Both the position numbers and the translations under genes were made by a program. The notes under the pieces were generated by a model. The model had not been told where the DNA came from and made no database searches. It saw only the letters and a program-made list of their open reading frames with translations. Shown piece by piece: positions 5,613-22,850 of a stretch of 64,000 nucleotides of DNA. The stretch lies in contig CAVYIM010000004.1 in assembly GCA_963768655.1 (NCBI GenBank), positions 767,784 to 831,783 on the forward strand, written 5' to 3'. Each line of letters begins with the position of its first letter. The first letter of the stretch is position 1. The DNA comes from an uncultured Chloroflexia bacterium (GTDB lineage Bacteria > Chloroflexota > Limnocylindria > Limnocylindrales > CSP1-4).

Positions 5613-5819
5613 ATGGGCTGGGAGACCAAAGACGCGGCGGCCGACTGGGTGCTCCCGCGCCTGCCTCCGGAGCACCGGCCGGTCCTCGAGCACGCCCGGG
5701 CGATCTACCTCGGCGACGCGGCAGACGAGTGGGGCGATTTGCGGCCGCGAGTTCGGCCGCACGTCGATCGCGTCCTCGGCGAGATACAGCGCCTGCGGGT
5801 ACAGGGCGACGAGGTTTGA
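5613..5819 (+). pseudogene. C-terminal fragment of an aminoglycoside adenylyltransferase (AadA/ANT, DUF4111-like)
   Basis: KDAAADWVLPRLPPEHRPVLEHARAIYLG...W..LRPRV..HVDRVLGEI resembles the AadA C-terminal helices; no N-terminal nucleotidyltransferase domain upstream. Confidence 0.7.
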
Positions 5820-5822
5820 GGC

Positions 5823-6809
5823 TCAGTACTCGTCCGGGACGAAGTGCTGGCTGAAGATCGGCGGGCGGATGTAGCCCTCCTCGGTCTGGCGGGGCGGCAG
5901 CTCGATCTTCGGCTCGACGATGTCCTCGTACGGAATCATGCTCAGCAAGTGCCGGATCGTGTTCAGGCGGGCGCGCTTCTTGTCGTCGGCGGCGACGACC
6001 CACCAGGGGGCTTCGGGGATGTCGGTCGCGGAGAACATGGCGTCCTTGGCCCGCGAGTATTCGACCCACTTGGCGCGCGACATCACGTCCATCGGCGATA
6101 GCTTCCAGTGCTTGGTGGGATCGGCGAGGCGGTCCTGGAATCGCTTCTCCTGCTCCTCGTTGCCGACCGAGAACCAGTACTTGAGCAGGATGATTCCCGA
6201 GCGCAACAGCAGCCGCTCGAACTCGGGGCAGGAGCGCAGGAACTCCGCGTACTCCTCCTGCGTGCAGAAGCCCATCACGTGCTCGACGCCGGCGCGGTTG
6301 TACCAGCTGCGGTCGAACAGCACCATCTCGCCGGCGGCGGGGAGCTGGGCCACGTAGCGCTGGAAATACCATTGCGTCTTCTCGCGGTCGGTCGGGGTGC
6401 CCAGGGCGACGACACGGCAGACGCGAGGGTTGAGCGGCGCCGAGATCGTCTTGATCGCGCCGCCCTTGCCGGCAGCGTCGCGGCCCTCGAACAGGACTAC
6501 GACCTTGAGACCGCGGGACTTGATCCACTCCTGGAGCTTGACCAGCTCGACGTTGAGGCGGGCCAGCTCCGTCAGGTAGAGCTTGAGCTCGAGCTTCTTG
6601 CGCGTCTCCTGGCGGTAGTCGCCTTCGGGGGTCAGCTCTGGGGCCGGGCGCGCGGCATGGGCCTTGGCGGCCGCTCGGGCGAGGGCGCGCTCCCGCGCCA
6701 CGACAGAGGCCGCGGCGGACACGGCCGCCTTGTTGAAGTCGCCGGGATCGGGCGGGGCCGGTGTCGGACGGACGCTCGCCCGGTGTTGTTCGTGTTGACG
6801 CTTAGCCAT
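5823..6809 (-). CDS. ppk2: Polyphosphate kinase 2 (class I)
   Basis: FEGRDAAGKGG, WYFQRY, FDRSWYNRAGVEHVMGF, WKLSPMD, DDKKRARLN. Confidence 0.96.
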   Translation of the reverse strand: MAKRQHEQHRASVRPTPAPPDPGDFNKAAVSAAASVVARERALARAAAKAHAARPAPELTPEGDYRQETRKKLELKLYLTELARLNVELVKLQEWIKSRGLKVVVLFEGRDAAGKGGAIKTISAPLNPRVCRVVALGTPTDREKTQWYFQRYVAQLPAAGEMVLFDRSWYNRAGVEHVMGFCTQEEYAEFLRSCPEFERLLLRSGIILLKYWFSVGNEEQEKRFQDRLADPTKHWKLSPMDVMSRAKWVEYSRAKDAMFSATDIPEAPWWVVAADDKKRARLNTIRHLLSMIPYEDIVEPKIELPPRQTEEGYIRPPIFSQHFVPDEY

Positions 6810-6942
6810 CGACAGCTCCCTGGTGGGCAAAGGAGACGTCGGCGACCGGTGCCGGCTTCCGTAGCGTAGCGCGACGCGGCGGCGATGCTCAAACGTCGTT
6901 CGCGTGAGTGAGCTGTGCGGGTGGCCGCTAACATCTCATCCA

Positions 6943-8190
6943 ATGCGCTGGCTGCGAGCACTGTATGTCTCCAACGGCCTGGCCATCGGCGCGCTGTACG
7001 GCTTCGTGCCCGTCCTGCTGCAGTCGAGGGGCTTCGACCCGGCCCTGATCGGCCTGACGACGGGTCTCGGCTCGCTCGCGTACGCGATCGCCCTGCCGGC
7101 CTGGGGCCACATGGGCGACATCGTCAGCGGCCCGCGCCGCACGCTGCAGCTGGCCTGCATTCCGGCGGCCATCTTCGCCATCGGCCTCAGCGCACCGATC
7201 CCGGCGATCGCCATCATCTTCTGCCAGCTGGTGATCAGCGCCGGCGGGGGGCCGACCCTGGCCCTGACCGATGCCATGGCCGTGCCAACGCTGGCGAATG
7301 CCTCGCGCGAGTACTCGAGGCTCCGGCTTCTGACAAGCCTGGGCGCGGCCAGCGCAGCCGTCGGTTGCGGTTTCCTCTACGCGCAGACGGGCTACCTGGC
7401 CGCACCGTTCGTGTACTTCTTCACCATGGCGGCGACCGTGGTCTGCGTCATGTTCGTGCCGCTCGGCCGCGACAGCGAACGCCGCCGCATGGCCCGCAGG
7501 GCCGCCGAAGGGCGCGCCCAGGCTGCTCCGGTGCGCGGCCGGTTCGGTTCCGTCGGGGAGGCCTTCAAAGTCGAACCGCGGCTCGTCGGCGTCCTGGTCT
7601 CGGTCACGCTCGTCTTCCTTGGCTGCATGTCCGCGGCCACCTACATCACCATCAGGATCGCCGACCTCGGGGGCGGGCCGGTCGAGGTCGGCCTCTCGAA
7701 TGGCCTCGGCTCGGTCGCGGAGGTCCCGGGCCTCATCCTGGCTGGCTGGCTCGCGAGCCGGATCGGGATTCGGATCGTCCTGGCGGTCTCGGCAATCGGA
7801 TTCGCGGCCTGCATGATGAGCTGGATCGTCCTCGTCGGAGCCGGCCCGATCCTGGCCACTCGCTTCGTGTCGGGGATCTTCTTCGGGGGGATCTTCTTCT
7901 CGTTCGTGTTGACGATGGCGAGGATGCTGCCGGTGCGCCTTCAGGCCACGGGCCAGACGCTCTTCCAGGCGGCGTGCTTCGGTGTCGCGGCCATCGTCGC
8001 GAATCTCGGCGGCGGGGTCCTGTATACCCTGGCAGGTCCGCTCGGGGTCTTCGGCGTCGGCGGGGTCTGCGCGATCGCGGGCGGGCTGGTGGGCCTGGCC
8101 GTCCTGCCCGGGGCCTCCGCGGCGAGTGCCAACGCTGGGGCCAGCGCGGCTGCGGAGCCGGCTCTTCCGCCGTCCCCATCGACGACCTGA
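6943..8190 (+). CDS. MFS transporter
   Basis: About 12 hydrophobic helices in two halves; WGHMGD motif; RLQATGQTLF. Confidence 0.88.
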   Translation: MRWLRALYVSNGLAIGALYGFVPVLLQSRGFDPALIGLTTGLGSLAYAIALPAWGHMGDIVSGPRRTLQLACIPAAIFAIGLSAPIPAIAIIFCQLVISAGGGPTLALTDAMAVPTLANASREYSRLRLLTSLGAASAAVGCGFLYAQTGYLAAPFVYFFTMAATVVCVMFVPLGRDSERRRMARRAAEGRAQAAPVRGRFGSVGEAFKVEPRLVGVLVSVTLVFLGCMSAATYITIRIADLGGGPVEVGLSNGLGSVAEVPGLILAGWLASRIGIRIVLAVSAIGFAACMMSWIVLVGAGPILATRFVSGIFFGGIFFSFVLTMARMLPVRLQATGQTLFQAACFGVAAIVANLGGGVLYTLAGPLGVFGVGGVCAIAGGLVGLAVLPGASAASANAGASAAAEPALPPSPSTT

Positions 8191-8271
8191 CCCGCCCGCC
8201 CTGACGCCCGGTGCGCCTCCGTGCCTCAGGACCCGGTACCATGCCGTCAGCGGCGCGACGGAGGAGGATCC

Positions 8272-9687
8272 ATGCGGCTCTGGGGCGGTCGGTTCGAAGG
8301 CACGACGGACGAGCGGGTGGCCGACTTCACCCGTTCGATCGAGCTCGACCGCGCGCTGGCGATCGACGACATCGCCGGCTCGATCGCCCATGTTCACGGG
8401 CTGGGGCGGGCCGGGCTGCTCGCGGACGACGAAGTGGCCACGATCGTCGCCGGCCTCGAAGGCCTGCGCGGCGAGGTAGAGACCGGCACGCTGGTCTGGG
8501 ACCCGGCGCTCGAGGACGTGCACATGAACCTGGAGGCGGCGCTGCGGGACCGAATCGGGCCCATCGCCGGACGCCTCCATACCGGACGATCCCGAAACGA
8601 CCAGGTCGCCACGGACCTGCGGCTCTGGCTGCGCCGCACGATCGATAACCTGGACGGGGCGATCCTGGACATGGAGCGGGCGCTCGTCGGCGTGGCGGTT
8701 CGTGACGGTGAGGCCGTCATGCCGGGCGCCACACACATCCAGCCGGCCCAGCCGGTGCTGCTGGCACATCACCTGCTGGCCTACGTCGAAATGCTCGAGC
8801 GCGACCGCGGTCGACTGGCGGACTGCCGGCGGCGGACCAACGTCTCGCCCCTGGGCTCGGGCGCTCTGGCGGGCGCGGGCTACCCGTTCGATCGCGAGAC
8901 GACGGCGAAGGAGCTCGGGTTCGAAGGCGTGACGGCCAACTCGCTCGACGCCGTAAGCGACCGGGACTTCGTCGTGGAGGCACTGGCCGCCATGGCGCTG
9001 TGCATGGTTCACCTGTCGCGGCTGGCCGAGGAGATCACCTGGTGGTCGAACCCGCGCTTCGGCTTCATCCGGGCGGCCGATTCGTTCTCGACGGGCTCGT
9101 CGATGATGCCGAACAAGAAGAACCCCGACCCGGCCGAGCTGGTGCGGGGCCGGGCGGCGCGCGTGATCGGGTCACTGACGGGGATGCTGGCGCTGCTGAA
9201 GGGGCTGCCGCTCGCGTATCAGCGCGATCTGCAGGAGGACAAGGCCCCGTTGTTCGAGTCGGCCGCGACGCTGGAGGCGTCGCTCGGCGTCATGGCCGGG
9301 ATGATCTCGACTCTGACCGTCGATCGCGAGCGGATGCGGGCCGCGGCCCAGGAGGGGTACGTCACTGCCACGGCCGTCGCCGACGCCCTCGTCCGGCGGG
9401 GAGTGGCTTTTCGGGCGGCCCACCATATCGTGGCCACGCTGGTCGCCGAAGCGGAGAGGGGCGGCGTCGGGCTCGAAGCGCTGGACGACGCCACGATCGC
9501 CGCGACGCTGGCCGCATCCGACGACGGCATGGCGGTCGCGATCGTGGGAGATGCCGCGCTCCCCGGGGAGCTGCGCGACGCCGCGGGGCTCGATGGCGCG
9601 CTGGCCGGCTGCGACGTCGTCGGCGGCACAGCGCCTCGTCGTGTGGCCGCGGCCCTGACCGCGGCGAGGGCTCGCCTGGGCGTGTAG
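8272..9687 (+). CDS. argH: Argininosuccinate lyase
   Basis: MRLWGGRF, LHTGRSRNDQVATD, GSSMMPNKKNPD; GGAGGAGG RBS. Confidence 0.97.
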   Translation: MRLWGGRFEGTTDERVADFTRSIELDRALAIDDIAGSIAHVHGLGRAGLLADDEVATIVAGLEGLRGEVETGTLVWDPALEDVHMNLEAALRDRIGPIAGRLHTGRSRNDQVATDLRLWLRRTIDNLDGAILDMERALVGVAVRDGEAVMPGATHIQPAQPVLLAHHLLAYVEMLERDRGRLADCRRRTNVSPLGSGALAGAGYPFDRETTAKELGFEGVTANSLDAVSDRDFVVEALAAMALCMVHLSRLAEEITWWSNPRFGFIRAADSFSTGSSMMPNKKNPDPAELVRGRAARVIGSLTGMLALLKGLPLAYQRDLQEDKAPLFESAATLEASLGVMAGMISTLTVDRERMRAAAQEGYVTATAVADALVRRGVAFRAAHHIVATLVAEAERGGVGLEALDDATIAATLAASDDGMAVAIVGDAALPGELRDAAGLDGALAGCDVVGGTAPRRVAAALTAARARLGV

Positions 9688-9937
9688 CCACGGCTGCGCG
9701 GGCCCGCGGTGACCGATCGCCGGCCCGATCGCCGGCAGGCCGCCTGACCGCTCGCCGGCAGGCCGCCTGGCCGCTCGCCAACCAGCCGGGCCGCTCGTTC
9801 GGCCGCCGGCGCCGCCATCGTCCCGATTTGTCACCGAATCTGCGCCGCTTCGATCTCGCATTCGGTGGCCGCACCGGCGTAGTCTGATGTCGCGCGGCAG
9901 GTGGGCCGCGGGTGCGCCGCGCCAGTCAGGTGGACGG

Positions 9938-10201
9938 ATGAAGCTGCACGAGTACGAGCCGGTCGAGGGAGAGTCCAAACCCCGCGCCGTGCACCGCGAG
10001 GGATCGTCTGTGCTGACCTGCGCCGCCTGCGGCTGCCGCCTCCTCGCCCGCGAATCTCTGCCGGACGGCGGCGGCTACGGCCCGGACGCGGCCTGGCGCC
10101 ATTACCACGGCAACACCCAGGAGACGGACGCCCGGGGCTGCCGGGTCGTGTGCGTTGATCGCCCGCACCGCACGATCCCGGTGGAGCAGCTCGCCTCCTA
10201 G
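9938..10201 (+). CDS. Hypothetical 87-aa Cys/His-rich protein (CxxCxC...H.H...CxxxC...H)
   Basis: Clean ORF with high GC3; upstream -10 TAGTCT at 9880-9885; no recognised family. Confidence 0.7.
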   Translation: MKLHEYEPVEGESKPRAVHREGSSVLTCAACGCRLLARESLPDGGGYGPDAAWRHYHGNTQETDARGCRVVCVDRPHRTIPVEQLAS

Positions 10202-10311
10202 CGCCACGCGCCGCGCCGCCACACGCCGCCACGCACCGGGCCGCCACGCCGGCACGCGCCCGGCCGCCACGCGCGCGCCGCGCCACACTGCCGGTCCCGC
10301 CACCCGAGCCC

Positions 10312-10399
10312 CGTCCTGAACGGCAACCGTCGCGCCACCGCAGCGCCACCGCCGGGTCACTCGACCGGTACTGATTCGGGCGAGCTCGCTACGTACGCT
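10312..10399 (+). promoter_or_regulatory. amt1 promoter with an 11-bp-periodic direct-repeat operator (copy 1 of 3)
   Basis: CGTCCTGAACG GCAAC-N6-GCCAC-N6-GCCAC-N6-GTCAC-N6-GGTAC TGATT; CTGATT-17 bp-TACGCT. Confidence 0.85.
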
Positions 10400-10458
10400 T
10401 CGGCCGGCCGCATCGACACGGGTCGTTTGCTGCGGCGTGGAGCGAAGGAGACAACAGC

Positions 10459-11700
10459 GTGAACCCCGCCTCGAGCGCCATCAACTCCGGCGACACCGCC
10501 TGGGTCCTGACCTCGGCCGCGCTCGTCATGCTCATGACGCCGGGCCTGGCTCTGTTCTATGGCGGCCTTGTCCGCCGCAAGAACGTGCTCAGCACGATCA
10601 TGCACAGCATCTTCATCCTCGCCCTGGTCAGCGTGACATGGGTTCTGGTCGGCTTCACGCTGGCCTTCGGCAAAGACGTGAACGGCTGGGGAATAATCGG
10701 CGGCCTCGACTTCGTCGGCCTGCGGGGCGTCGGCAAGGATCCGCTCACGCAATACGCGCCTAGCATTCCCGGTTCCGCCTTCATGGCCTTCCAGATGATG
10801 TTCGCCGTGATCACGCCGGCCCTCATCACCGGTGCCTTCGCCGAGCGCAAGCGCTTCAAGGCTTTCGTGCTGTTCTCGCTGCTGTGGACGCTCATCGTCT
10901 ATTCGCCGATCGCCCACTGGGTCTGGGGCGAAGGCGGTTGGCTCCGCAACCTGGGCGTCCTCGACTTCGCCGGCGGCACAGTCGTCCACATCAGCTCGGG
11001 TGTCGCGGCCCTCGTCGCCGCGCTGGTCCTTGGACCGCGGGTCAAGCGCGAGTCGGACCGCTTCGAGCCGCACGACGTCCGCCTGACGGTCATCGGCGCG
11101 GGCCTGCTCTGGTTCGGCTGGTTCGGCTTCAACGGCGGCTCCGCCCTGGCGGCCAACGGCACTGCCGCCAACGCGTTCGTCGTTACGAACACGGCCGCCG
11201 GCATGGCGGCCCTCACCTGGGTCACGATGAGCTGGCTGCACAAGGGCACGCCGAGCGTCGTGGGCGCCGTCGCGGGCGGCGTCGCCGGTCTCGTGGCCAT
11301 CACCCCCGCGTCGGGGTTTGTCGACGCGAGCGCCGCGATCATCATCGGCTTCGCGGCCGGTGCGGTCTGCTACAGCGCCATCCTGCTGCGCGAGCGGCTC
11401 AAGATCGACGACGCGCTCGATGTCTGGGCGGTCCACGGCGTCGGCGGCACGCTCGGCGCGATCCTGACGGGTGTATTCGCCGTGGCCGCGGTCGGCGGCG
11501 CGTCCGGCCTCGTCGACGGCAATCCCGGCCAGGTCGGAACGCAGCTGGTGGCTGTGGCCGCGACCTGGATCTACAGCGGCATCGCCACCTTCATCATCCT
11601 CAAGGTAGTCGACTTCTTCGTCGGGCTTCGCGTCGACGAGGCCGAAGAGGAAGCGGGCCTGGACTCCTCGCAGCATGGCGAGGTGGCCTGGCAGCTCTAG
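10459..11700 (+). CDS. amtB: Ammonium transporter (paralog 1)
   Basis: GDTAWVL, LMTPGLALFYGG, FQMMFA, DFAGGTVVH, LWFGWFGFN, DDALDVWAVHG, C-terminal EEAGLD. Confidence 0.97.
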   Translation: MNPASSAINSGDTAWVLTSAALVMLMTPGLALFYGGLVRRKNVLSTIMHSIFILALVSVTWVLVGFTLAFGKDVNGWGIIGGLDFVGLRGVGKDPLTQYAPSIPGSAFMAFQMMFAVITPALITGAFAERKRFKAFVLFSLLWTLIVYSPIAHWVWGEGGWLRNLGVLDFAGGTVVHISSGVAALVAALVLGPRVKRESDRFEPHDVRLTVIGAGLLWFGWFGFNGGSALAANGTAANAFVVTNTAAGMAALTWVTMSWLHKGTPSVVGAVAGGVAGLVAITPASGFVDASAAIIIGFAAGAVCYSAILLRERLKIDDALDVWAVHGVGGTLGAILTGVFAVAAVGGASGLVDGNPGQVGTQLVAVAATWIYSGIATFIILKVVDFFVGLRVDEAEEEAGLDSSQHGEVAWQL

Positions 11701-11837
11701 CGGGCGCACACGCCGGGGCAGCGGCGCGGCCGCGCCGCTCGAGCCGGCACCAATCGGCAACCTCGAACCTTTGAAGGGCCCGCCGAGAGGGCCCTCGAGA
11801 ACCGCCAGCCGAGCCAGCGGGCCCGGTCGCCACAACG

Positions 11838-11925
11838 CGTCCCGAACGACAACCCTCGCGCCACCAGAGCGCCACCCGAGGGTCACTCGGTCGTAACTGA
11901 TTCCCGACGCCTCGCTCCATACGCT
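11838..11925 (+). promoter_or_regulatory. amt2 promoter with an 11-bp-periodic direct-repeat operator (copy 2 of 3)
   Basis: CGTCCCGAACG ACAAC-N6-GCCAC-N6-GCCAC-N6-GTCAC-N6-GTAAC TGATT; CTGATT-17 bp-TACGCT. Confidence 0.85.
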
Positions 11926-11984
11926 TCCCCGGGCCGCTTTCGCGGCATTCGTCCGTTGCGATTGGGAAGCGAAGGAGTCTCGGC

Positions 11985-13211
11985 GTGATCAATGGTGGCG
12001 ACACCGCCTGGGTATTGACCGCCACGGCGCTGGTCATGTTGATGACGCCCGGTCTGGCCCTCTTCTACGGTGGCCTGGTCCGCCGCAAGAACGTCCTCAG
12101 CATCCTCATGCAGTGCATGTTCATCCTCGGCCTGGTCAGCGTGACCTGGGTGCTGGTCGGCTACACCCTGGCCTTCGGGCCGGACGTCAACGGCTGGGGC
12201 ATCATCGGCGGCCTGGACAACATCGGCCTCAAGGGCGTCGGTATCGCTCCGGGCCCGTACGCGGCGACCATCCCGGCGACCGCGTTCGCGCTGTTCCAGA
12301 TGATGTTCGCCATCATCACCCCGGCCCTGATCATCGGCGCCTTCGCCGAGCGCAAGCGCTTCAAGGCCTTCGTCCTCTTCGCCTTGCTGTGGAGCCTGCT
12401 CGTCTACTCGCCGATCTGCCACTGGGTCTGGGGCGAGGGCGGCTGGCTGCGCAACATGGGCGTGCTCGACTACGCCGGCGGCACGGTCGTCCACATCAGC
12501 TCCGGCGTCGCGGCCCTGGTGGCGGCGCTCGTCCTGGGCCCGCGCGTCCGGCGCGAGTCCGAGCGCTTCGAGCCCCACGACGTCCGGCTGACGGTCATCG
12601 GCGCCGGCATCCTGTGGTTCGGCTGGTTCGGCTTCAACGGCGGCTCGGCGCTCGCCGCGAACGGCCTCGCCGTCAATGCGGTCCTGGTGACGAACACCGC
12701 CGCCGGAATGGGCGCGCTGACCTGGATGACGATGAGCTGGCTGCACAAGGGTTCGCCGAGCGTCATCGGCGCCGTGTCGGGCGCGATCGCCGGCGAGGTC
12801 GGCATCACGCCGGCCTCCGGCTTCGTCGACCCAAGCTCCGCAATCCTGATCGGCTTCATCGCCGGCGTCGTCTGCTACAGCGCGATCCTGCTGCGCGAGC
12901 GCATGAAGATCGACGACGCCCTAGACGTCTGGGCTGTCCACGGTGTCGGGGGCACGCTGGGCGTCCTGCTCACCGGCGTCCTGGCGACGACCGCTGTGAA
13001 TACCGTGGGCCGGGGCTGGATCGACGGCAACTTCGGCCAGATCGGCATCCAGCTCGTCGCCATCGTCGCCGTGTGGGTCTACAGCGCGGTGGCGACCTTC
13101 GTGATACTCAAGCTCGTGGACGTGGCCGTGGGGCTCCGAGTCGGCGAGGCCGAGGAGGAGGCCGGGCTGGATGCCAGCCAGCACGGCGAGACGGTCGCCT
13201 TCCAGAACTGA
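11985..13211 (+). CDS. amtB: Ammonium transporter (paralog 2)
   Basis: Same Amt motifs as paralog 1; DYAGG and GAIAGEVGITP variants. Confidence 0.97.
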   Translation: MINGGDTAWVLTATALVMLMTPGLALFYGGLVRRKNVLSILMQCMFILGLVSVTWVLVGYTLAFGPDVNGWGIIGGLDNIGLKGVGIAPGPYAATIPATAFALFQMMFAIITPALIIGAFAERKRFKAFVLFALLWSLLVYSPICHWVWGEGGWLRNMGVLDYAGGTVVHISSGVAALVAALVLGPRVRRESERFEPHDVRLTVIGAGILWFGWFGFNGGSALAANGLAVNAVLVTNTAAGMGALTWMTMSWLHKGSPSVIGAVSGAIAGEVGITPASGFVDPSSAILIGFIAGVVCYSAILLRERMKIDDALDVWAVHGVGGTLGVLLTGVLATTAVNTVGRGWIDGNFGQIGIQLVAIVAVWVYSAVATFVILKLVDVAVGLRVGEAEEEAGLDASQHGETVAFQN

Positions 13212-13233
13212 GCCGTTCTGCCTTTCGCGAAGG

Positions 13234-13270
13234 ACGGCGCCGCCTTCTCCCCCTCGGGCGGCGCCGTTCT
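13234..13270 (+). terminator. Putative intrinsic terminator after amt2
   Basis: ACGGCGCCGCC-loop-GGCGGCGCCGT followed by a pyrimidine run. Confidence 0.55.
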
Positions 13271-13320
13271 CCTCTTGCGCGCCGCCCCGTTGCGCGTGAA
13301 GCCGATCTGCGAGCCGCTAT

Positions 13321-13512
13321 CTCGCCAGACTTGCCTGGAGTGGAAGTTGGGAGCGACAAGGGGCCGGCGTAAGGGGTGCGGGATCCGGTGCCGAGCAGGC
13401 GCCGTCTCGATTTCACGCTCGACGACCCCGACACCCGGACAGAGCCAGGGCTGACCCGGTCGAGTGAGGCCCGCAATCAGCGCCAACTTTCACCTGGGGC
13501 AAGTTTGGCCAG
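13321..13512. repeat. ~190-bp intergenic element bounded by ~28-30-bp imperfect inverted repeats (MITE/REPIN-like, copy 1)
   Basis: GCCAGACTTGCCTGGAGTGGAAGTTGG ... CCAACTTTCACCTGGGGCAAGTTTGGC; related ends at 26728-26936. Confidence 0.6.
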
Positions 13513-13621
13513 AAGTGGGCTCGCGAATGCGCCGTGCCGTGGTCGCGCCGCCGTCGCGCCCGGGTCGCGCCGCCGTCGCGCCCGGGTCGCGGGTCCGCGC
13601 CTGGGTCGCGAACGGGCGAAA

Positions 13622-13709
13622 CGTCCCGAACGGCAACTGTCGTGTCACCGGAGCGTCACCGAAAGTCCACCCTCGCGCTACTGATTTGGGCCGACTCCTT
13701 CCATAGACT
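13622..13709 (+). promoter_or_regulatory. Promoter with the 11-bp-periodic operator (copy 3 of 3), upstream of a small ORF
   Basis: CGTCCCGAACG GCAAC-N6-GTCAC-N6-GTCAC-N6-TCCAC-N6-GCTAC TGATT; CTGATT-17 bp-TAGACT. Confidence 0.85.
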
Positions 13710-13764
13710 TCCAGTCAATGAAACGGGACCGAGGGTCCCAGAGCTCAGCCGAAGGAGCTAAGAA

Positions 13765-13848
13765 ATGATCGTCGCAGCCGCTTTCCTCAGTTTCGGTCTC
13801 CTGGTCGTGGCCTGGTTCGTCGCTCCGTCCCACGCGGCGGCCGAGTAG
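13765..13848 (+). CDS. Unannotated 27-aa hydrophobic peptide MIVAAAFLSFGLLVVAWFVAPSHAAAE
   Basis: Own promoter; GAAGGAG RBS 7 nt before the ATG (same SD as both amt genes); one TM-length hydrophobic stretch; downstream terminator; below the ORF-track length cutoff. Confidence 0.75.
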   Translation: MIVAAAFLSFGLLVVAWFVAPSHAAAE

Positions 13849-13931
13849 CAGCGGTCGTTTCCGCGGCCTCGACCGGTAGCAGTGCCGGTCTCCCGGGCGC
13901 CTCGCCTCTGACGCGCCACCCAACAGGCAAA

Positions 13932-13988
13932 CCCACACGCCGGCCCGCGCACCTTTTCGGCAGGTTGCGCGGGCTTCGTGTTTGTGGG
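13932..13988 (+). terminator. Intrinsic terminator closing the small-ORF transcript
   Basis: GCCCGCGCA-CCT...AGGT-TGCGCGGGC stem followed by TTCGTGTTTG. Confidence 0.7.
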
Positions 13989-14316
13989 CGGCGGGGGACC
14001 CCACGGAATCCGGAGGCGCGGCGCCAACCATCCCGTCATTTACCAACGGGGGCAGCACGAGAATGACTTCTCGGGCAAGATCGCGGACCCACCCAAATCC
14101 TGCGGCGACGTCAGGGCCTCCAGGTTCTGGGAGCCGCCGCTAGGTTCGCGGGCCGGCCGGGCCCCGCGCCGCCGCCCGATCGCGCCAGTGCCGCCGCCCC
14201 GGCGCCCGATCGCGCCAGTGCCGCCGCGCCGCGCCCGCGCCACGCGCCAGTGCCGCGCCCCACGCAACGCGCCGCCGCCCCGCCCCCCTGCCGCCCCCGC
14301 CGCTCGGCGCCGCGCG

Positions 14317-15030
14317 TTACTCCACGTCTTCGAGCCGGTAGCCCACGCCGCGGACCGAGGCCGGCACCGGCGCGCCGGACTCCTCCAGCTTGGAGCGCAG
14401 GCGTGCCAGATGAGGTTTGAGCCACTGCGGATCGGGGTTCGGCTCACCGGGCCAGCCCGCGGCGAGCAGCGAGCTGTGCGAGACCACGTGGCCGGCCGCG
14501 GCGACGAGCGAGGCGAGCAGGCTGTACTCGGTGCGGGTCAGGACGAGCTCCGCGCCGGCGACGGAGGCTGTGTGGCGGCCGCGGTCGAGGACGATCGAGC
14601 CCCACCGCAGCTCCCCGGCGCCGCGTGGCTCCGCCTCGTTGCCGCGTCGGCGCATCACGGCCCGGATGCGGGCCAGCAGCTCCTGCTTGCCGAACGGCTT
14701 GACCACGTAGTCGTCCGCGCCCGTGTCCAGCGCCTCGACCTTGGCGCGCTCGTCGGCCTCGCCCGTGAGGACGATGATCGGCGTCTGCGACATGCGCCGG
14801 ATAGCGCGGCAGACCTCGACGCCGTCGAGCCCGGGCATGGCCAGGTCCAACAGCACCAGGTCCGGGCGTTCCTCGGAGAAGCGGCGCAGCGCGGCGTTGC
14901 CGTCGTACGCGGTGACGACGCGATGTCCGGCGCGACCGACCAGGGCCGACACGGCGCCCACCATGGCCGGCTCGTCGTCGACGACGAGGATCAGCAGGCT
15001 CGCCTCCGTCACCGGACCCGTGGTGCTCAA
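14317..15030 (-). CDS. OmpR/PhoB-family response regulator (receiver + winged HTH)
   Basis: VVDDE, LLDLAMPGLDG (phospho-Asp), GADDYVVKPF, LTRTEY, HLARLRSKLE..VRGVGYRL. Confidence 0.95.
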   Translation of the reverse strand: MSTTGPVTEASLLILVVDDEPAMVGAVSALVGRAGHRVVTAYDGNAALRRFSEERPDLVLLDLAMPGLDGVEVCRAIRRMSQTPIIVLTGEADERAKVEALDTGADDYVVKPFGKQELLARIRAVMRRRGNEAEPRGAGELRWGSIVLDRGRHTASVAGAELVLTRTEYSLLASLVAAAGHVVSHSSLLAAGWPGEPNPDPQWLKPHLARLRSKLEESGAPVPASVRGVGYRLEDVE

Positions 15031-15078
15031 CTTGTGGCCTCCGCTCCAATCTGCGCTGACGCGCTGAGCTGCCCTTCG

Positions 15079-16509
15079 CTACCCGTCCGAGCCGGCCTCG
15101 GACATGACGCCGGCCTCGGGGCCGTCGCCGTCCCCCGAAGTGTCGCGCATCTCGGGCACCGCAACCATAAAGCGACTGCCGCCGTACCCATTTGATTCCA
15201 ACCAGACACGTCCGCCCATAGCGTTCATGAGCCGCCGGGCCGCGTAGAGCCCGATTCCGGAGCCTCTCGGTCGCGTCGCCGTCCGGACATACGCGTCGAA
15301 GACCGACTGCCATTCGGCCTCGGGGATCCCGGGCCCGTCGTCGGTGACGTAGATCCTGACTTCGCCATCCCCTCGCGATGCCCCGACGCTGACCGACCCG
15401 CCGTCGGGCGAATACTTCACCTCGTTCTCCAGCAGATGCTCCAGGACCTGGCGGAAGCGCCCCTCGTCGCCCACGCCCATCAGCTCCTCCCAGGTGCCGG
15501 TGCGGCGCAGCGGATGCTCTCGCAGCAGCGGCGACATCTCGCCGATCGTGTCGTTCACGGCGCGAGCGACGTCGAACGGGAGCCGCGCCAGACCCGCCGC
15601 CAGTCCCTCGCCGCGGACCGATGCCAGGATCGAATCCACCAGCCGATCCAGGCGCGTCACCTGCCCGATCGCCTGGCTGCGCCACTCTTCGACGAGCGTC
15701 GGGTCGGGCCCGGCGCCGCTGCCCGCAGCGTCGGCGGCCGCGTCCGACAGCAGATCCACATACGCCCGCACGACCGCCAGCGGCGTCCGCAGCTCGTGCG
15801 TCACGACCGCCAGCAGCTCGGCCCGGGCGCCGTCGAGAGCCGTGAGGGTCTGGAGCTGCTCTTCCGCCTCGGCCTGGAGCCGCCCTTTCTCGACGATGCC
15901 GCCCAGGAGCGCCCCGATCGTGACCAGGAACTCGACCTCCTCCGGGGAGAAGAGGCGGGTTTCGATCGCCTGGACGTTGATGACGCCGATGATCGTGTCG
16001 TTCCACGGCAGCGGCACCGAGAGCATCGAGACGAACTGCGACTGGTCGAAGCCGGGCACCCACTTGAAGCGCGGATCGACCCGAACGTCGGGCGAGGCGA
16101 CCGGCCGGCCGAGCATCGCGGCGCGACCCGTCAGGCCTTCGCCCAGGCCCAGCGTGACGCGTCCGATCTGATCGCGGTCGAGGCCGTTCGTGGCGGCCAG
16201 CCGAAGGCACGACTCGTCGCGCTCCATGAGGTAGACGGAGCAGACCTCGACGTCCAGGGCGGTCGTGGTTCGATCCACGATCGTCCGCATCAGCTCGTCC
16301 CAGTTGCGCGCCGTGGTGAGCAGCTTGGCGAACTCGTGCAGGAACTCGAGCTCGCGCAGCTTGCGCTCGGCGTCGAACGGCGCGTCGACCTTCGGGCCCG
16401 AGAGTCCGGTCGAGCCCGGAGGTCCTTCCGGCTCGAGTCCCTGAGCAGTGGCAGGTGCGGGCTCGGGTCGCGGGCCGCGCTCGCTTTGCTCGCCTTCGGG
16501 CCCGTTCAT
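15079..16509 (-). CDS. Soluble GAF-domain sensor histidine kinase
   Basis: GAF (VCSVYL...LAATNGL...GEGLTG...DPRFK...MLSVPL..IGVINVQ), H-box THELRTPL, N-box LLENEVKYS, DDGPGI, GSGIGL; no TM segment. Confidence 0.93.
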   Translation of the reverse strand: MNGPEGEQSERGPRPEPAPATAQGLEPEGPPGSTGLSGPKVDAPFDAERKLRELEFLHEFAKLLTTARNWDELMRTIVDRTTTALDVEVCSVYLMERDESCLRLAATNGLDRDQIGRVTLGLGEGLTGRAAMLGRPVASPDVRVDPRFKWVPGFDQSQFVSMLSVPLPWNDTIIGVINVQAIETRLFSPEEVEFLVTIGALLGGIVEKGRLQAEAEEQLQTLTALDGARAELLAVVTHELRTPLAVVRAYVDLLSDAAADAAGSGAGPDPTLVEEWRSQAIGQVTRLDRLVDSILASVRGEGLAAGLARLPFDVARAVNDTIGEMSPLLREHPLRRTGTWEELMGVGDEGRFRQVLEHLLENEVKYSPDGGSVSVGASRGDGEVRIYVTDDGPGIPEAEWQSVFDAYVRTATRPRGSGIGLYAARRLMNAMGGRVWLESNGYGGSRFMVAVPEMRDTSGDGDGPEAGVMSEAGSDG

Positions 16510-16511
16510 CG

Positions 16512-17798
16512 CTACCTCGCGGCCGTGGCCGGCGCGTCGTAGACCTTCGTCGGCAGCTCGGCGAGCAGCGGCTCGGTCCACGTCCAGGCCGCGCCGTAGT
16601 GGCGACCCACGGCCCCGTGCCGGGCCGCCTCCGTCCGCAGCGGAAGCCCGAAGATCTCGATGAACCCGACGGCGCTGGCGTGGTCGAAGGCATCGTCCGC
16701 GTCGTACGTCGCCAGAGCCTTGTCGTACAGGGAGAGCGGGCTGCGCCGGCCGACCACGATGGCGTTGCCGTGGTCGAGCCGGACCCGGACGTCGCCGCTG
16801 ACGACGCGCTGGCTGCTGGCGGCGTAGCCGCGCAGGTCGCGGTGCAGGGCGCTGAACCACAGCCCGTCGTAGGTGAGCTGGGCCAGCTCGTCGGCCACCG
16901 TGCGATTGAAGCGGAGCGTGTCCTTGGTGAGAGTCAGCCCCTCCAGGGCGCGGTGGGCCCGGTGGATGACCGTCGCGGCGGGCGCCTCGTAGATCTCGCG
17001 GCTCTTGATGCCGACCAGGCGGTCCTCGACGTGGTCCACGCGACCGACGCCGTGGGCGCAGGCGAGGTCGTGCAGCTTCTCGACCAGCACGACCGGATCG
17101 AGCCGCTCGCCGTCGAGAGACACGGGGACGCCGCCCTCGAAGCCGATCACGATCTCGACCGGATCGGGCGCCGCCTCAGGGTCGACGGTCCAGCGGTAGA
17201 CGTCCGCTCGTGGCGCCGTCCAGGGATCCTCGAGGATGCCGGCTTCGATGGAGCGACCCCACAGGTTCACGTCGATCGAGTAGATCGAGTCCTTCGTGAT
17301 GGTGATCTCGATGTTGCGGGCCTTCGCGTACTCGATCTCCTGCTCGCGGGACAGACCCATGCCGACGCGCATCGGGGCGATGACGGCCAGCGATGGATCG
17401 AGGGCGTGCGTCGCGACATCGAAGCGGACCTGGTCGTTGCCCTTGCCGGTGCAGCCGTGGGCGACCGCGTCGGCCCCTTCCTTGTGAGCGACCTCGACCA
17501 GGAGCTGGGCGATCATCGGCCGGGCCATGGCAGTGGCCAGGGGATACACGCCCTGGTAGAGCGCCCCGGCCTGGACGTGGGGCCAGCAGAAGTCGCGCAC
17601 GAAGCGCTCGCGGCCGTCGACGACGTAGGCCCGGCTGGCGCCGGCGCTGATGGCCCGGCGATCGACGTCCTCCTTGAGCACGCCGCCGCCGAGATCGACG
17701 GTCAGAGTGACCACCTCGACGTTGTACTGCTCGCGCAGCCAGGCGACGGCGACCGAGGTGTCGAGTCCACCGGAATAGGCGAGCACCACCTTGTTCAT
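16512..17798 (-). CDS. argG: Argininosuccinate synthase
   Basis: VLAYSGGLDTS, HGCTGKGNDQVRF, SIDVNLWGRSIE, GIKSREIYEAP. Confidence 0.97.
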   Translation of the reverse strand: MNKVVLAYSGGLDTSVAVAWLREQYNVEVVTLTVDLGGGVLKEDVDRRAISAGASRAYVVDGRERFVRDFCWPHVQAGALYQGVYPLATAMARPMIAQLLVEVAHKEGADAVAHGCTGKGNDQVRFDVATHALDPSLAVIAPMRVGMGLSREQEIEYAKARNIEITITKDSIYSIDVNLWGRSIEAGILEDPWTAPRADVYRWTVDPEAAPDPVEIVIGFEGGVPVSLDGERLDPVVLVEKLHDLACAHGVGRVDHVEDRLVGIKSREIYEAPAATVIHRAHRALEGLTLTKDTLRFNRTVADELAQLTYDGLWFSALHRDLRGYAASSQRVVSGDVRVRLDHGNAIVVGRRSPLSLYDKALATYDADDAFDHASAVGFIEIFGLPLRTEAARHGAVGRHYGAAWTWTEPLLAELPTKVYDAPATAAR

Positions 17799-18337
17799 CG
17801 AGGAGCCTCCGAGTGAACGAACAGTCGTGCGTTCGGCCCGGCCGACGCGTCCGACGATTGGAATGTCCCGAAGCGGATCAGCCACCGCTCGAGGGCGGCT
17901 TCGGTCTCGAACAGGACCAGCACGGTGTTGTCGCCCGCAAGGGTGCCGACCTGATCGGCCAGGCTCGACTGATCGATCGCCTGGGCGATCGCGCCGGCCG
18001 ACCCGGGCGTCGCCACGAGCACCAGGCTCAGGCCGCTGCGACCTATCTGGACGGGGATGTCAGCGAGCAGCCTGCGGAGCCGGGCGTCGTAGGCGTTTCC
18101 CGTGGCGGCCGTCTCCGGAGTAGCGTAGACGTGGCGGTCGCCGCGCGGCACCTTCACCAGGCCCATCTCCGCGGCGTCTCGGCTGACCGTCGCCTGGGTG
18201 ACCTCGAAGCCTCTCTCGCGGAGAAGCTCGACCAGCTCCTCCTGGCTCCCGATCGGCGAATGCGAGATCAGATCGAGCAGGGCGCGCTGCCGGCGCTGCT
18301 TGACGTTCGGCTGGCTGCCGTTGATGGCCATGATCAC
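17795..18337 (-). CDS. argR: Arginine repressor
   Basis: SQEELV..L...GFEVTQATVSRD, TPGSA, GTLAGDNT. Confidence 0.95.
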   Translation of the reverse strand: MIMAINGSQPNVKQRRQRALLDLISHSPIGSQEELVELLRERGFEVTQATVSRDAAEMGLVKVPRGDRHVYATPETAATGNAYDARLRRLLADIPVQIGRSGLSLVLVATPGSAGAIAQAIDQSSLADQVGTLAGDNTVLVLFETEAALERWLIRFGTFQSSDASAGPNARLFVHSEAPR

Positions 18338-20644: not shown

Positions 20645-21814
20645 CTAGGGTGCGATCGGGTACTGTTCGAGCCCCGTTGTCTCGGGCAGGCCGAAGAGGA
20701 CGTTGAGGGCCTGGACCGCCTGCCCGGCCGCCCCCTTGACCAGGTTGTCGATGACGCCCAGCGCCAGGATGCGGCCGCTGCGCGGATCGACCCGGCACCA
20801 CACCCGGCACATGTTGCTGCCATAGACGTGCTTGGTGGCCGGCGGATCGGTGACGACCTGGACGAACGGCTCGTCGCGATAGGCCTCCGCGTACAGCGCG
20901 TCCAGCTCCGCCTGGGTGACGGGGCGGGTCGGCCGCACATGGCAGCTGACGAGGATTCCACGCGTCATCGGAATGAGGTGCGGCAGGAAATCAACCACGG
21001 CTACGCCCGGGTTGGCGTCGCGGCTGCCGAGCGCGCCGCGCTCTCCCTGCTGCTGGAGCTCCTGCTCCATCTCGGCGGTGTGGCGGTGGGTGAACATGCC
21101 GTAGGCCTTGACGCTCTCGTTGATCTCGGAGAAGAGCAGATCGGGCTTGGGCTCGCGGCCCGCCCCCGACACCCCGCTCTTGGCATCGACTGCGAGATCG
21201 CCGATCAGCCCGGCCCGGGCCAGCGGGGCGAGGGTCAGGATCGTCGCGGTCGGGTAGCAGCCGGGCAGCCCGATGACGCTCGAATTCTGCTCGGCGGCGG
21301 CGCGGATCTCCTCCCGGTGCAACTCCGGGAGGCCGTATACGGCCCGAGCCAGGAGCTCGGGCGCTGGATGGTCGAGCTTGTACCAGCGCGGATAGTCGGC
21401 CGGATCGTGGAGCCGGAAGTCCGGCCCGACGTCCAGCAGGGCGGAGCCGCGGGCCGTGATCTCGGCGGCCATCTCGGCGGCCACGCCGTGCGGCAGCGCT
21501 GTGAAGATGGCGTCGGCCTCGGGCATGGCCGCATCGATGACCAGGCCCGATGCGGCGAGGTGCGGATGAGACTCCGCGATCGAGACGTTGTCGCGGTTGC
21601 GGCCGTACAGGCCTGCCAGCCGGACGCGCGGGTGGTTCAGCAGCAGCCGAACCAGCTCGCCGCCTGCATAGCCGGTGGCGCCGACGATGCCGACGGTGAT
21701 CGTCCGGCTGCCCTGTCGAGCGCGGACCGTGCGAGCCCCCAGCGAGGCAGGCGCAGGCTTCTTCCCGGAGCTGGCTGTCGAAACGCCGTCGGGCGTGGGT
21801 CTGGTGGAGGTCAT
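20645..21814 (-). CDS. argC: N-acetyl-gamma-glutamyl-phosphate reductase
   Basis: GATGYAGGEL, YGLPEL, PGCYPT, SGVSGAGR, DNLVKGAAGQA. Confidence 0.96.
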   Translation of the reverse strand: MTSTRPTPDGVSTASSGKKPAPASLGARTVRARQGSRTITVGIVGATGYAGGELVRLLLNHPRVRLAGLYGRNRDNVSIAESHPHLAASGLVIDAAMPEADAIFTALPHGVAAEMAAEITARGSALLDVGPDFRLHDPADYPRWYKLDHPAPELLARAVYGLPELHREEIRAAAEQNSSVIGLPGCYPTATILTLAPLARAGLIGDLAVDAKSGVSGAGREPKPDLLFSEINESVKAYGMFTHRHTAEMEQELQQQGERGALGSRDANPGVAVVDFLPHLIPMTRGILVSCHVRPTRPVTQAELDALYAEAYRDEPFVQVVTDPPATKHVYGSNMCRVWCRVDPRSGRILALGVIDNLVKGAAGQAVQALNVLFGLPETTGLEQYPIAP

Positions 21815-21817
21815 GGC

Positions 21818-21851
21818 GCATGAGTATACGGTTCAGTGAATAGTCATGCAA
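21818..21851 (-). promoter_or_regulatory. argC promoter overlapped by ARG boxes
   Basis: Minus strand: TTGCAT-17 bp-TATACT-8 nt-ATG; ARG box TGCATGACTATTCA and a degenerate second box CGTATACTCATGCG 20 bp downstream. Confidence 0.85.
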
Positions 21852-21923
21852 GCTCGGCGCTCGGCGCTCGCGGCACCGCCACCCGCCCGCGACCCGCCGC
21901 CCGCGGCCCACGACCGGCGCCGA

Positions 21924-22598
21924 TCAGATGTAGCCGGCCGCGACCAGAATGATGCCCGCGACCATGAACCAGTGGAGCAGCCAGCCCCAGACGAACGAGC
22001 GCGTGCGCCAGGCCAGGATGCCGAAGAAGACGCCCCCCGCGATCGTCGACAGCACCTCGAGCTCGGGCTTCCAGACATGCATCAGGGCGAACGGGATCAT
22101 CTGCAGCCAGATCGCGTCGGTGCCGTACCTGGGCCGGAAGGATCCCAGCAGCCAACCCCGGAAGAAGAACTCCCAGGCGAACATGTCGACGCCGGAGTCC
22201 AGGACGATCCGCCAGGCTGGTCTCTGCCCCGCGAGCAGTGTGTAGAAGACGCGGAAGTCCGGCAATTGCCCCAGGATCGCGATGACGACCGACATGATGG
22301 CGATGCCGGCGATCGCCACCGGCAACCCGAGCCTCCAGTCGCCCAGGACCATGCCGTAGCGACGCGGACTCTCGCGCCAGACCAGGACGATGACGGTCAT
22401 CGGGACCAGCGCTTCGAGCACCAGGTGCGCGTACTCGGGCTGGCCGTAGGTGTTGTCGTACGCGACCAGCAGGACGAGCATGGCGGCCGTAATGGCCTGG
22501 ACCATCCTGGCATCGAAGTCCACCCCCCAGATCCGCCAGGTCGTCCCGGCTCGGACTTCCGGCGTGGCTTCGTCCCCAGCCGAGGCTGCCTGAGACAC
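21924..22598 (-). CDS. CPBP (CAAX/Abi) intramembrane metalloprotease
   Basis: WEFFFRG, FALMH, LLHWF motifs within TM helices. Confidence 0.88.
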   Translation of the reverse strand: MSQAASAGDEATPEVRAGTTWRIWGVDFDARMVQAITAAMLVLLVAYDNTYGQPEYAHLVLEALVPMTVIVLVWRESPRRYGMVLGDWRLGLPVAIAGIAIMSVVIAILGQLPDFRVFYTLLAGQRPAWRIVLDSGVDMFAWEFFFRGWLLGSFRPRYGTDAIWLQMIPFALMHVWKPELEVLSTIAGGVFFGILAWRTRSFVWGWLLHWFMVAGIILVAAGYI

Positions 22599-22850
22599 CG
22601 ACCATCCCTCCAGGGCTTGCGCACTCCTGGTCACTCGGTGGGCGGGCGCCTCAGCCGGGGCGGCGCGGTCGGAGCGTCCGCGTCGGCGGGGCGATGATAT
22701 CAATCTGCGCCCGCCCGAAGCCCGGCCCGGGCCGGTTTGGGGGGCGCCGACCCCGGCCGTGGCGCGCCACCATCTGGCGCCGCGCCACGGCCAGCACGCC
22801 GCGGCCGGGCGCCGCGGCCCGCCGCCCAACGGCCGGCCGAAGCCAGTAGG

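Follow-up and report, generated by a model that had tools for sequence, protein, structure and literature searches.

The 64,000-nucleotide (nt) stretch of DNA analysed here, hereafter the window, forms the end of contig C4 in the metagenome-assembled genome (MAG) of a peat bacterium of the Limnocylindria (Chloroflexota). In it, two ammonium transporter genes, amt1 and amt2, and a gene encoding a peptide of 27 amino acids (aa) are each preceded by a copy of the same 88-nt promoter, which carries short boxes repeated at 11-nt steps. Convergent with these genes lie those of a cytoplasmic histidine kinase with a PtsP-like GAF domain and of a response regulator of the OmpR/PhoB family. We propose that this adjacent pair activates the amt1, amt2 and peptide promoters through the phased boxes in a nitrogen-regulated manner, the GAF domain reading nitrogen status. 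Based on sequence comparison and on analogy with known systems, we give this reading a probability of roughly 0.45; overall, two-component nitrogen control is plausible. Neither the kinase-regulator pair nor nitrogen control in Limnocylindria was found described in the full-text literature searched, supplements excluded. The source genome comprises 3.37 Mb in 9 contigs, with 68.7% G+C and an estimated completeness of 88.6%.

The promoter copies are all located on the plus strand, at 10312..10399 (copy 1, before amt1), 11838..11925 (copy 2, before amt2) and 13622..13709 (copy 3, before the peptide gene). Copy 1 contains CGTCCTGAAC, with five phased boxes followed by CTGATT-N17-TACGCT, and has orthologous copies in related loci; copy 2 and copy 3, the latter with TAGACT as its −10 element, are likewise supported by gapless alignment, genome patterns, a sequence profile and relatives. 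Aligned without gaps, the copies have pairwise identities of 68, 62 and 61 of 88, and 54 of the 88 positions are common to all three; in the equally long flanks immediately upstream, pairwise matches amount to just 21-34 of 88. Every copy consists of NNNAC pentamers at exact 11-nt steps and then CTGATT-N17-TA(C/G)(G/A)CT, so that the box closest to the gene overlaps a weak −35 element (CTGATT) that is separated by exactly 17 nt from TAnnCT. A GAAGGAG Shine-Dalgarno sequence follows each copy, and the start codons are GTG, GTG and ATG. An earlier description of the same DNA, made from its letters alone (the sequence-only reading), had claimed three gapless, phased intergenic segments, and this was borne out in full.

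Strict patterns run over the whole genome returned these three copies and no others. With a profile built from 47 copies, the genome scan gave E values of 9.5e-21, 3e-18 and 4.7e-18 for the three copies, followed by a next-best match at E 0.89 (0.47 with a box-only profile) within long open frames. Additional full copies were sought with nhmmer and with position-weight scans of the genome, and none were obtained; the best extra match, C9:128595, sits within long open frames. An RNA element was also considered and rejected: Rfam returned two sub-threshold, chance-level matches elsewhere in 10000-14400, and the conservation follows periodic boxes instead of paired stems. Because Rfam is empty and the conserved boxes are periodic, we regard the copies as protein-binding promoter DNA, not as an RNA motif or a mobile repeat.

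Conservation was examined in 47 related loci of the same genus around the kinase, taken with their fetched flanks. The relatives retrieved via the kinase are MAGs labelled Chloroflexota or Candidatus Limnocylindria, from fens, peat and soils. An nhmmer search over these loci detected 54 copies in 30 of them, without exception on the strand that converges on the kinase, and each copy in the genus precedes amt1, amt2 or the 27-aa peptide gene. The consensus of 47 aligned copies reads CGTcCcgAAC,.gCAACCc..g, CG.cACC.gag, CG..ACC.a.g in the 5' half and g..cACccg.., cGcTACTGATT, N17, TA..CT TC. in the 3' half. Information peaks at CG..ACC every 11 nt in these copies, for which the selection rule demanded the AC dinucleotides and not the flanking CG and C, and the spacers are variable; the dominant box word is CG(C/T)(C/A)ACC. 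The 5' end of the element coincides with a sharp onset of conservation, and the sequence upstream of it is not conserved in relatives. The 5' element itself, degenerate in the window (CGTCC), is CGTACC in many copies before the peptide gene, and therefore constitutes a sixth box in phase.

The strict pattern, with one mismatch allowed, was also searched for in a class sample of 151 genomes, 10 of which belong to the genus (the source genome included) and 141 of which do not. All 10 genus genomes contain it, in 2-3 clustered copies each, and none of the 141 others do; the reversed pattern, used as a control, gave 0 matches in the 151. As judged from these comparisons, the boxes are under selection. 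The class tallies for the strict pattern, for kinase homologues and for PII include five genomes flagged as unpublished (G123, G112, G067, G106 and G091); apart from these tallies and a phylum-level PII tally given below, none of the results draws on unpublished genomes.

The kinase gene (15079..16509, minus strand) encodes 476 aa with a PtsP-like GAF, a HisKA and a HATPase_c domain. Matches to PF00512 (E 9.9e-12) and PF02518 (E 8.5e-23) and the H-box THELRTP identify it as a HisKA-type histidine kinase, and no membrane segment was found (top 19-residue hydropathy 1.29). Its start codon lies 2 nt past the stop codon of argG (16512..17885, minus strand), the end of argCJBRG, and the minus-strand series argC, argJ, argB, argR, argG, kinase and regulator converges on the amt and peptide genes. 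Domain searches confirmed the gene calls of the sequence-only reading, namely two Amt proteins, a GAF kinase without transmembrane segments, an OmpR-family regulator and argCJBRG. The likeness of the kinase GAF, at about residues 50-215, to that of PtsP, noted by eye at that stage, likewise held: the PtsP model NF008283 matches with E 5.6e-29 over PtsP positions 5-171, as the sole non-kinase NCBIfam family among the 25 kinase matches listed. Among solved structures, the best match of the GAF domain is an uncharacterised protein, 3e0y (E 2.1e-21), followed by the PtsP GAFs 3trc (6.5e-17) and 3ci6 (7.7e-16); the next named GAF classes score around 1e-6 (cGMP phosphodiesterase GAF, 2.8e-6).

The regulator gene (14317..15030, minus strand) encodes a 237-aa member of the OmpR/PhoB family (PF00072, E 1.8e-32; PF00486, E 2.2e-14). 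Its receiver pocket is canonical, with VVDDEP, LLDLAMPG, VLTG and VKPF in 16/16 aligned family members (judged by eye from the Pfam match). All of these aligned regulators, drawn from both paralogue types and family f4, share the recognition helix WLKPHLARLR, which lies in a region of the pattern DPDxxW(L/A/V)KPH(L/V)ARLR(A/S/F)K(L/V). The protein remains below all NCBIfam equivalog cut-offs, the best being MtrA with 190 of 300 bits. At full length, the closest solved proteins among the 60 matches listed are RegX3, MtrA, PrrA and PhoP, and no GlnR chain is among them; by this measure GlnR is not its nearest relative in the OmpR family. When the DNA-binding domain is compared by itself, RegX3 comes first and Mycobacterium tuberculosis GlnR second (chain 8hih_O, E 4.3e-8; 8HIH is the GlnR entry according to the available part of PMC10235972).

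Synteny of the kinase-regulator family with amt was proposed as a check in the sequence-only reading, and it holds across the class, with amt and/or gltB as neighbours. Within the genus, the regulator lies beside the kinase in 45 of the 47 loci, argG adjoins the kinase or lies within ~2 kb of it in 39, and motif copies occur <= 8 kb downstream of the regulator in 30. In genus loci with copies farther away, cydABCD-like genes are found in between; in several species such a cluster (cytochrome bd oxidase and two ABC-transporter genes) is inserted between the regulator and the peptide and amt genes (L015 10336-16182). Kinase homologues (E <= 1e-30) are present in 109 of the 151 class genomes, and full-length homologues (E <= 1e-50) in only 4 of 180 genomes from the rest of the phylum. 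For the comparison beyond the genus, loci were chosen by hand among the best kinase matches, with long contigs preferred, and are not a random sample. The regulator-bearing ones adjoin amt and/or gltB, in convergent arrangement, in 8/9 cases in family f1, 6/6 in f4 and 3/6 in f3 (17/21 in total). In f4 the pair abuts gltB in 6/6 loci, and in f3 the distance to amt is at most 6-8 kb in 3/6.

Other genera of the same family carry two kinase paralogues. Where the argG-side paralogue is accompanied by a regulator (g3 and g7), it converges on amt-gltB or amt, and where it is not (four loci, in g2 and g4), neither amt nor gltB is nearby. The second paralogue forms a kinase-regulator pair convergent on an amt-gltB operon in 5/6 loci, and in genera g2 and g4 (L055-L058) two kinases may feed one regulator. 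Outside the class, two distant kinase homologues (33-36% identity) were examined, and both have amt at a distance of 2-3 kb. One of these surroundings, in another Chloroflexota class (L172 of G284, 5709-10706), comprises on one strand amt, a Na/H exchanger, a stand-alone receiver, a CBS protein and the GAF histidine kinase.

Related boxes also occur before other nitrogen genes and in other genera. The amt gene of g7 is preceded by 11-nt repeats, CGTCCCGATT followed by CGCCACC.... twice, and that of g3 by CGCAACC.... and CGACACC, again an 11-nt repeat. Before gltB in the genus, the sequence GT(T/A)ACCGATTCGCAACC-TT-CGCAACC-TTGACC-N17-GACACT is conserved, with conservation starting exactly at the first box; by manual count the first CGCAACC is present in 30/30 rows and the second CAACC in 21/30. 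In g3, gltB has three phased boxes. An operon for an SBP_bac_3 amino-acid ABC transporter is preceded by YGCAACC-N4-YGCAAC and then CTTGCRC-N17-TACGCT, the boxes being present in 22 and 23 of 24 rows. In the source genome, the gltB promoter is at C5:168700-168780 and the transporter promoter at C5:204725-204800. Given these related CGCAACC box pairs, gltB and the amino-acid ABC transporter probably belong to the same regulon.

Other sites of this kind were observed in the source genome. At C4:54190-54310 (minus strand), upstream of a rhodanese-like and then a GMP-synthase-like (guaA) gene, there is a CGCAACC pair together with three CGC(T/C)AC boxes at 11-nt steps, and this gene pair (C4:54309) may be a further member of the regulon. 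Additional candidate sites precede an APS-kinase-like gene (C6:260730) and an aldo-keto-reductase-like gene (C9:40975). The leader of gltB (C5:168780-168860; L067, L069) contains TTTCCGC-GACGG-..GGGCTCCTGC....GGAGCAGG, conserved across 30 genus loci, and this stretch may be a structured leader RNA.

PII is regarded as a near-universal nitrogen-sensing hub, and amt is usually paired with glnK. The sequence-only reading had found no glnK or glnB in the window, and PII (PF00543) was indeed not found in the window or in the source genome at its 88.6% completeness. Among the 151 class genomes PF00543 was detected in one, with the positive control detected in 13/14 reference genomes. In a phylum sample of 201 Chloroflexota genomes, one of them flagged as unpublished (G340), it was detected in 62, and in 0 of the 21 class members in that sample. 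PII loss is therefore common in the Chloroflexota and not unique to the class. Since Amt is present while PII is rare, PII-less nitrogen metabolism seems to be common in the phylum.

In the circuit that we propose, the OmpR-family regulator would bind the five or six CG..ACC boxes head-to-tail at 11-nt steps. With a transcription start predicted ~7 nt after the −10 element, near 10406, 11932 and 13716 for the three promoters, the box centres would fall near −36, −47, −58, −69, −80 and −91, the last being degenerate. As the proximal box overlaps the weak −35, the regulator, once bound, would bring in RNA polymerase in the manner of PhoB and GlnR, and its phosphorylated form would use the array as a platform on which to oligomerise. 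Phosphorylation of the neighbouring regulator by its cytoplasmic partner kinase would switch on amt1, amt2 and the 27-aa peptide gene. Nitrogen status would be sensed without an intermediary by the PtsP-type GAF of the kinase. If the signs are as in PtsP, phosphorylation would be promoted by 2-oxoglutarate and counteracted by glutamine, and amt would be switched on under nitrogen limitation. Such direct sensing by a GAF kinase would replace the PII-based relay that the lineage lacks. Judged by synteny, the adjacent pair is probably the controller.

Several findings weigh against this circuit, some of them also feeding the alternatives discussed with them below. The full five-box module is restricted to one genus among the class sample, and four of the 21 picked loci outside the genus have neither amt nor gltB. 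Before amt in g2, g4 and g8 the same words recur at a spacing that is not cleanly 11 nt, and in 5/6 f4 loci the boxes before gltB (CGCAACCGATTCGCAAT) are on the opposite strand, in inverted orientation. The sequence-only reading had predicted motif matches at glutamine synthetase, gltBD and transporter genes; gltB and the amino-acid ABC transporter do carry conserved box pairs, but none were seen, by eye or by pattern, before the sole glutamine synthetase gene found in the genome (PF00120, C3:~21311-22734). In a soil metatranscriptome (X1; contigs only; share 0.05), related amt fragments were found that are mostly 88-95% alike and carry no information on starts, strand or this organism. Moreover, the conservation and synteny counts are not independent, because every genome compared is a MAG of a related organism and the choice of loci beyond the genus was made by hand.

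The co-linearity of the kinase with argG, likewise to be set against the circuit, could point to an arginine-related signal. The same circuit could respond to another GAF ligand, be it an arginine-pathway metabolite, another amino acid, a nucleotide second messenger or the redox state, which we consider rather unlikely. GAF domains bind many ligands, the kinase start codon directly follows the argG stop codon, and argG accompanies the kinase not just in the 39 genus loci but also in other genera and in f4. Set against this are the PtsP GAFs, which lie far ahead of the other named GAF classes, the position of the PtsP model as the only non-kinase family among the 25 listed, and the fact that glutamine and 2-oxoglutarate are the textbook signals for targets such as glutamate synthase and the uptake of ammonium. 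Among solved GAF domains, however, the nearest is the uncharacterised 3e0y and not PtsP, and the PtsP ligand model itself is, in the available part of PMC13104625, not validated in all bacteria.

It is unlikely, in our view, that a different OmpR-family regulator binds the boxes while the adjacent pair controls, for example, arginine synthesis. The genome has 16 Trans_reg_C matches, 13 of which are other regulator-sized OmpR-type proteins, and any of these is a possible box binder. One of them, an atypical OmpR-type regulator at C4:749974-750798 (L141), ~17 kb before the window, has a degenerate receiver without the usual acidic pocket and GlnR among its solved relatives (E 3.2e-14), and matched no NCBIfam family at E 1e-40; the regulator at ~44.5-45.3 kb of the window is an ordinary family member, and a PhoP/MtrA-like protein would be a further candidate. 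We take the CG..ACC boxes to resemble the TCAC/GTCAC-type boxes of actinobacterial PhoP and MtrA. In 17 of 47 genus loci no copy lies inside the fetched flank, and adjacency is missing there. At the Streptomyces amtB promoter, according to the available part of PMC5826061, PhoP competes with GlnR. Yet all 13 stay below the NCBIfam equivalog cut-offs; annotation thus gives a specific name to none and does not discriminate among them. The kinase-regulator family, the only one examined in this way, is syntenic with amt or gltB in three families of the class, and its unusual recognition helix is invariant while the box words recur over the same range. Very improbable, finally, is an array that serves as a repressor or roadblock site, or that is paralogous promoter sequence left over from tandem duplication and has nothing to do with nitrogen control. 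As tandem paralogues that are 79% identical, amt1 and amt2 had their promoters duplicated along with the genes, but the third copy precedes the unrelated peptide gene, and the boxes are retained, while spacers and flanks drift, in the orthologous copies of as many as 47 species-level genomes. A box over a weak −35 is, besides, typical of activation, as is familiar from PhoB. GlnR offers the same precedent in the available part of PMC10235972.

The proposed regulation of amt by the adjacent pair through the boxes invites comparison with GlnR, also an OmpR/PhoB-family protein. As described in the available parts of PMC5826061 and PMC10235972, GlnR sites have the form gTnAc-n6-GaAAc with an 11-nt phase. 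The Streptomyces amtB promoter contains three 22-bp GlnR boxes, equivalent to six 5-nt sites 6 nt apart, with an extra box leading to prompter activation (PMC5826061, available part). Four GlnR protomers are arranged head-to-tail around the −35 element, touching sigma region 4, the beta flap and alpha, and GlnR, an orphan regulator, does its work without being phosphorylated at Asp (PMC10235972, available part). Similarly, an array of five to six NNNAC-N6 boxes extends to the −35 of amt here, with CG(C/T)(C/A)ACC as the dominant word, and gltB has GTTAC-N6-GCAAC. Unlike GlnR, the Limnocylindria regulator combines a canonical receiver with a cognate kinase gene next to its own, directly upstream in 45/47 genus loci, and it has the recognition helix WLKPHLARLR instead of TVDVHVRRLR; it belongs to the phylum Chloroflexota, and no PII, GlnK or GlnD is found as an operon partner. 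The sequence-only reading had called the circuit distinct from GlnR. As the array shares its architecture with the six-site array at Streptomyces amtB, this distinctness holds for the signalling input (kinase and canonical receiver) and not for the promoter logic.

With PtsP (EI-Ntr), the kinase shares an N-terminal GAF of the same sequence type, and its ligands are proposed by analogy. In PtsP, glutamine binding to the GAF inhibits autophosphorylation and 2-oxoglutarate stimulates it (available part of PMC13104625, citing Lee et al. 2013). The output of the kinase differs, being HisKA/HATPase_c; the phosphoenolpyruvate-utilising enzyme I domains were not found in it, and the PtsP model matches the GAF part only. 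Its phosphate would go to a DNA-binding regulator instead of to NPr and EIIA-Ntr.

At pho boxes, PhoB binds 11-bp direct repeats that replace a poor −35, and the phosphorylated regulator contacts sigma region 4. The corresponding PhoB-sigma4 structure is 3T72 (cited in the available part of PMC10235972). Phased direct repeats over a poor −35 are thus a feature common to PhoR-PhoB and the present pair, and the regulator scores 169.5 bits against the PhoB model TIGR02154. This is below the PhoB cut-off of 296 bits; in addition, the kinase is a soluble GAF protein and not membrane-bound, the genes concerned are nitrogen and not phosphate genes, and the array is longer than at pho-box promoters, with five to six units. 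NtrB, in turn, is controlled via PII, and NtrC is a sigma-54 AAA+ activator. Together they form a two-component switch that turns on amt and nitrogen-assimilation genes under nitrogen limitation (available part of PMC10235972). The regulator here consists of receiver and winged-helix domains alone and the promoters are of the −35/−10 type; the difference from NtrBC claimed in the sequence-only reading stands, as the regulator lacks an AAA+ domain and no PII was found in the genome. In contrast to an Amt-GlnK pair, no PII gene is linked to amt.

Of the genes behind the promoters, both amt1 (10459..11700, plus strand, 413 aa; PF00909, E 1.2e-130) and amt2 (11985..13211, plus strand, 408 aa, 79% identical to amt1) exceed the TIGR00836 cut-off of 343.3 bits, with 479 and 472.5 bits, and are therefore Amt family members. 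The third gene (13765..13848, plus strand) encodes the 27-aa peptide, a single hydrophobic membrane helix (hydropathy 2.53) conserved in the genus that matches no family in Pfam or NCBIfam. Its 25 orthologous open reading frames encode MIAAAF(I/L/V)SFG(V/L)LVV(A/G)WF(V/I)APSR... in 26-27 residues, with one lengthened to 39. Variability by codon position is 0.109/0.076/0.259, as expected of a translated gene, and we therefore consider this reading frame a real micro-gene.

The leader of the peptide gene (13725..13759, plus strand) can form two small hairpins, the second of which pairs with the Shine-Dalgarno sequence (z −3.1). Read by eye, its pairing is kept in relatives via two-sided changes (AGCUC/GGAGCU versus GGUUC/GGAGCC), which hints at translational control. 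Downstream, a terminator-like hairpin with a U-rich tail (13942..13985, plus strand; −28 kcal/mol, z only −1.9) has similar counterparts in relatives, and the peptide transcript would consequently end short of the regulator gene that converges on it. Three tandem arrays rich in GC, with periods of 23, 22/11 and 30, are found at 10202-10284, 13541-13591 and 14164-14261, the first two just upstream of copies 1 and 3 and the last beside the 3' end of the regulator gene. They were considered as extra boxes (13541-13591 contains inverted CGCGACC at 11-nt steps) and rejected, since none is conserved in relatives.

The candidate new input of the system is a histidine kinase that carries a fused GAF of the PtsP type; a candidate, previously undescribed co-regulated micro-peptide goes with it. 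The kinase and regulator proteins are small and soluble and the promoters span 88 bp, so that they could be synthesised and assayed without cultivating the organism. A more far-reaching version, in which Limnocylindria, and perhaps further Chloroflexota without PII, have this one-step circuit switching on amt, gltB and amino-acid uptake in place of the entire PII/GlnD/NtrBC or GlnR layer, with the peptide acting as a new small Amt subunit or gate that takes over GlnK's restraint of ammonium entry, is doubtful and distinctly unlikely at present. This abundant uncultured class of soil, peat and freshwater has kept Amt, has PII in 1/151 genomes, and carries a GAF kinase and an unusual regulator beside amt and gltB. 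If the proposed circuit is true, amt, gltB, the amino-acid ABC transporter and the micro-peptide would form a marker regulon for nitrogen limitation in peat and soil metatranscriptomes, and a direct metabolite-to-kinase route for nitrogen control would provide an answer to how PII-less bacteria sense nitrogen.

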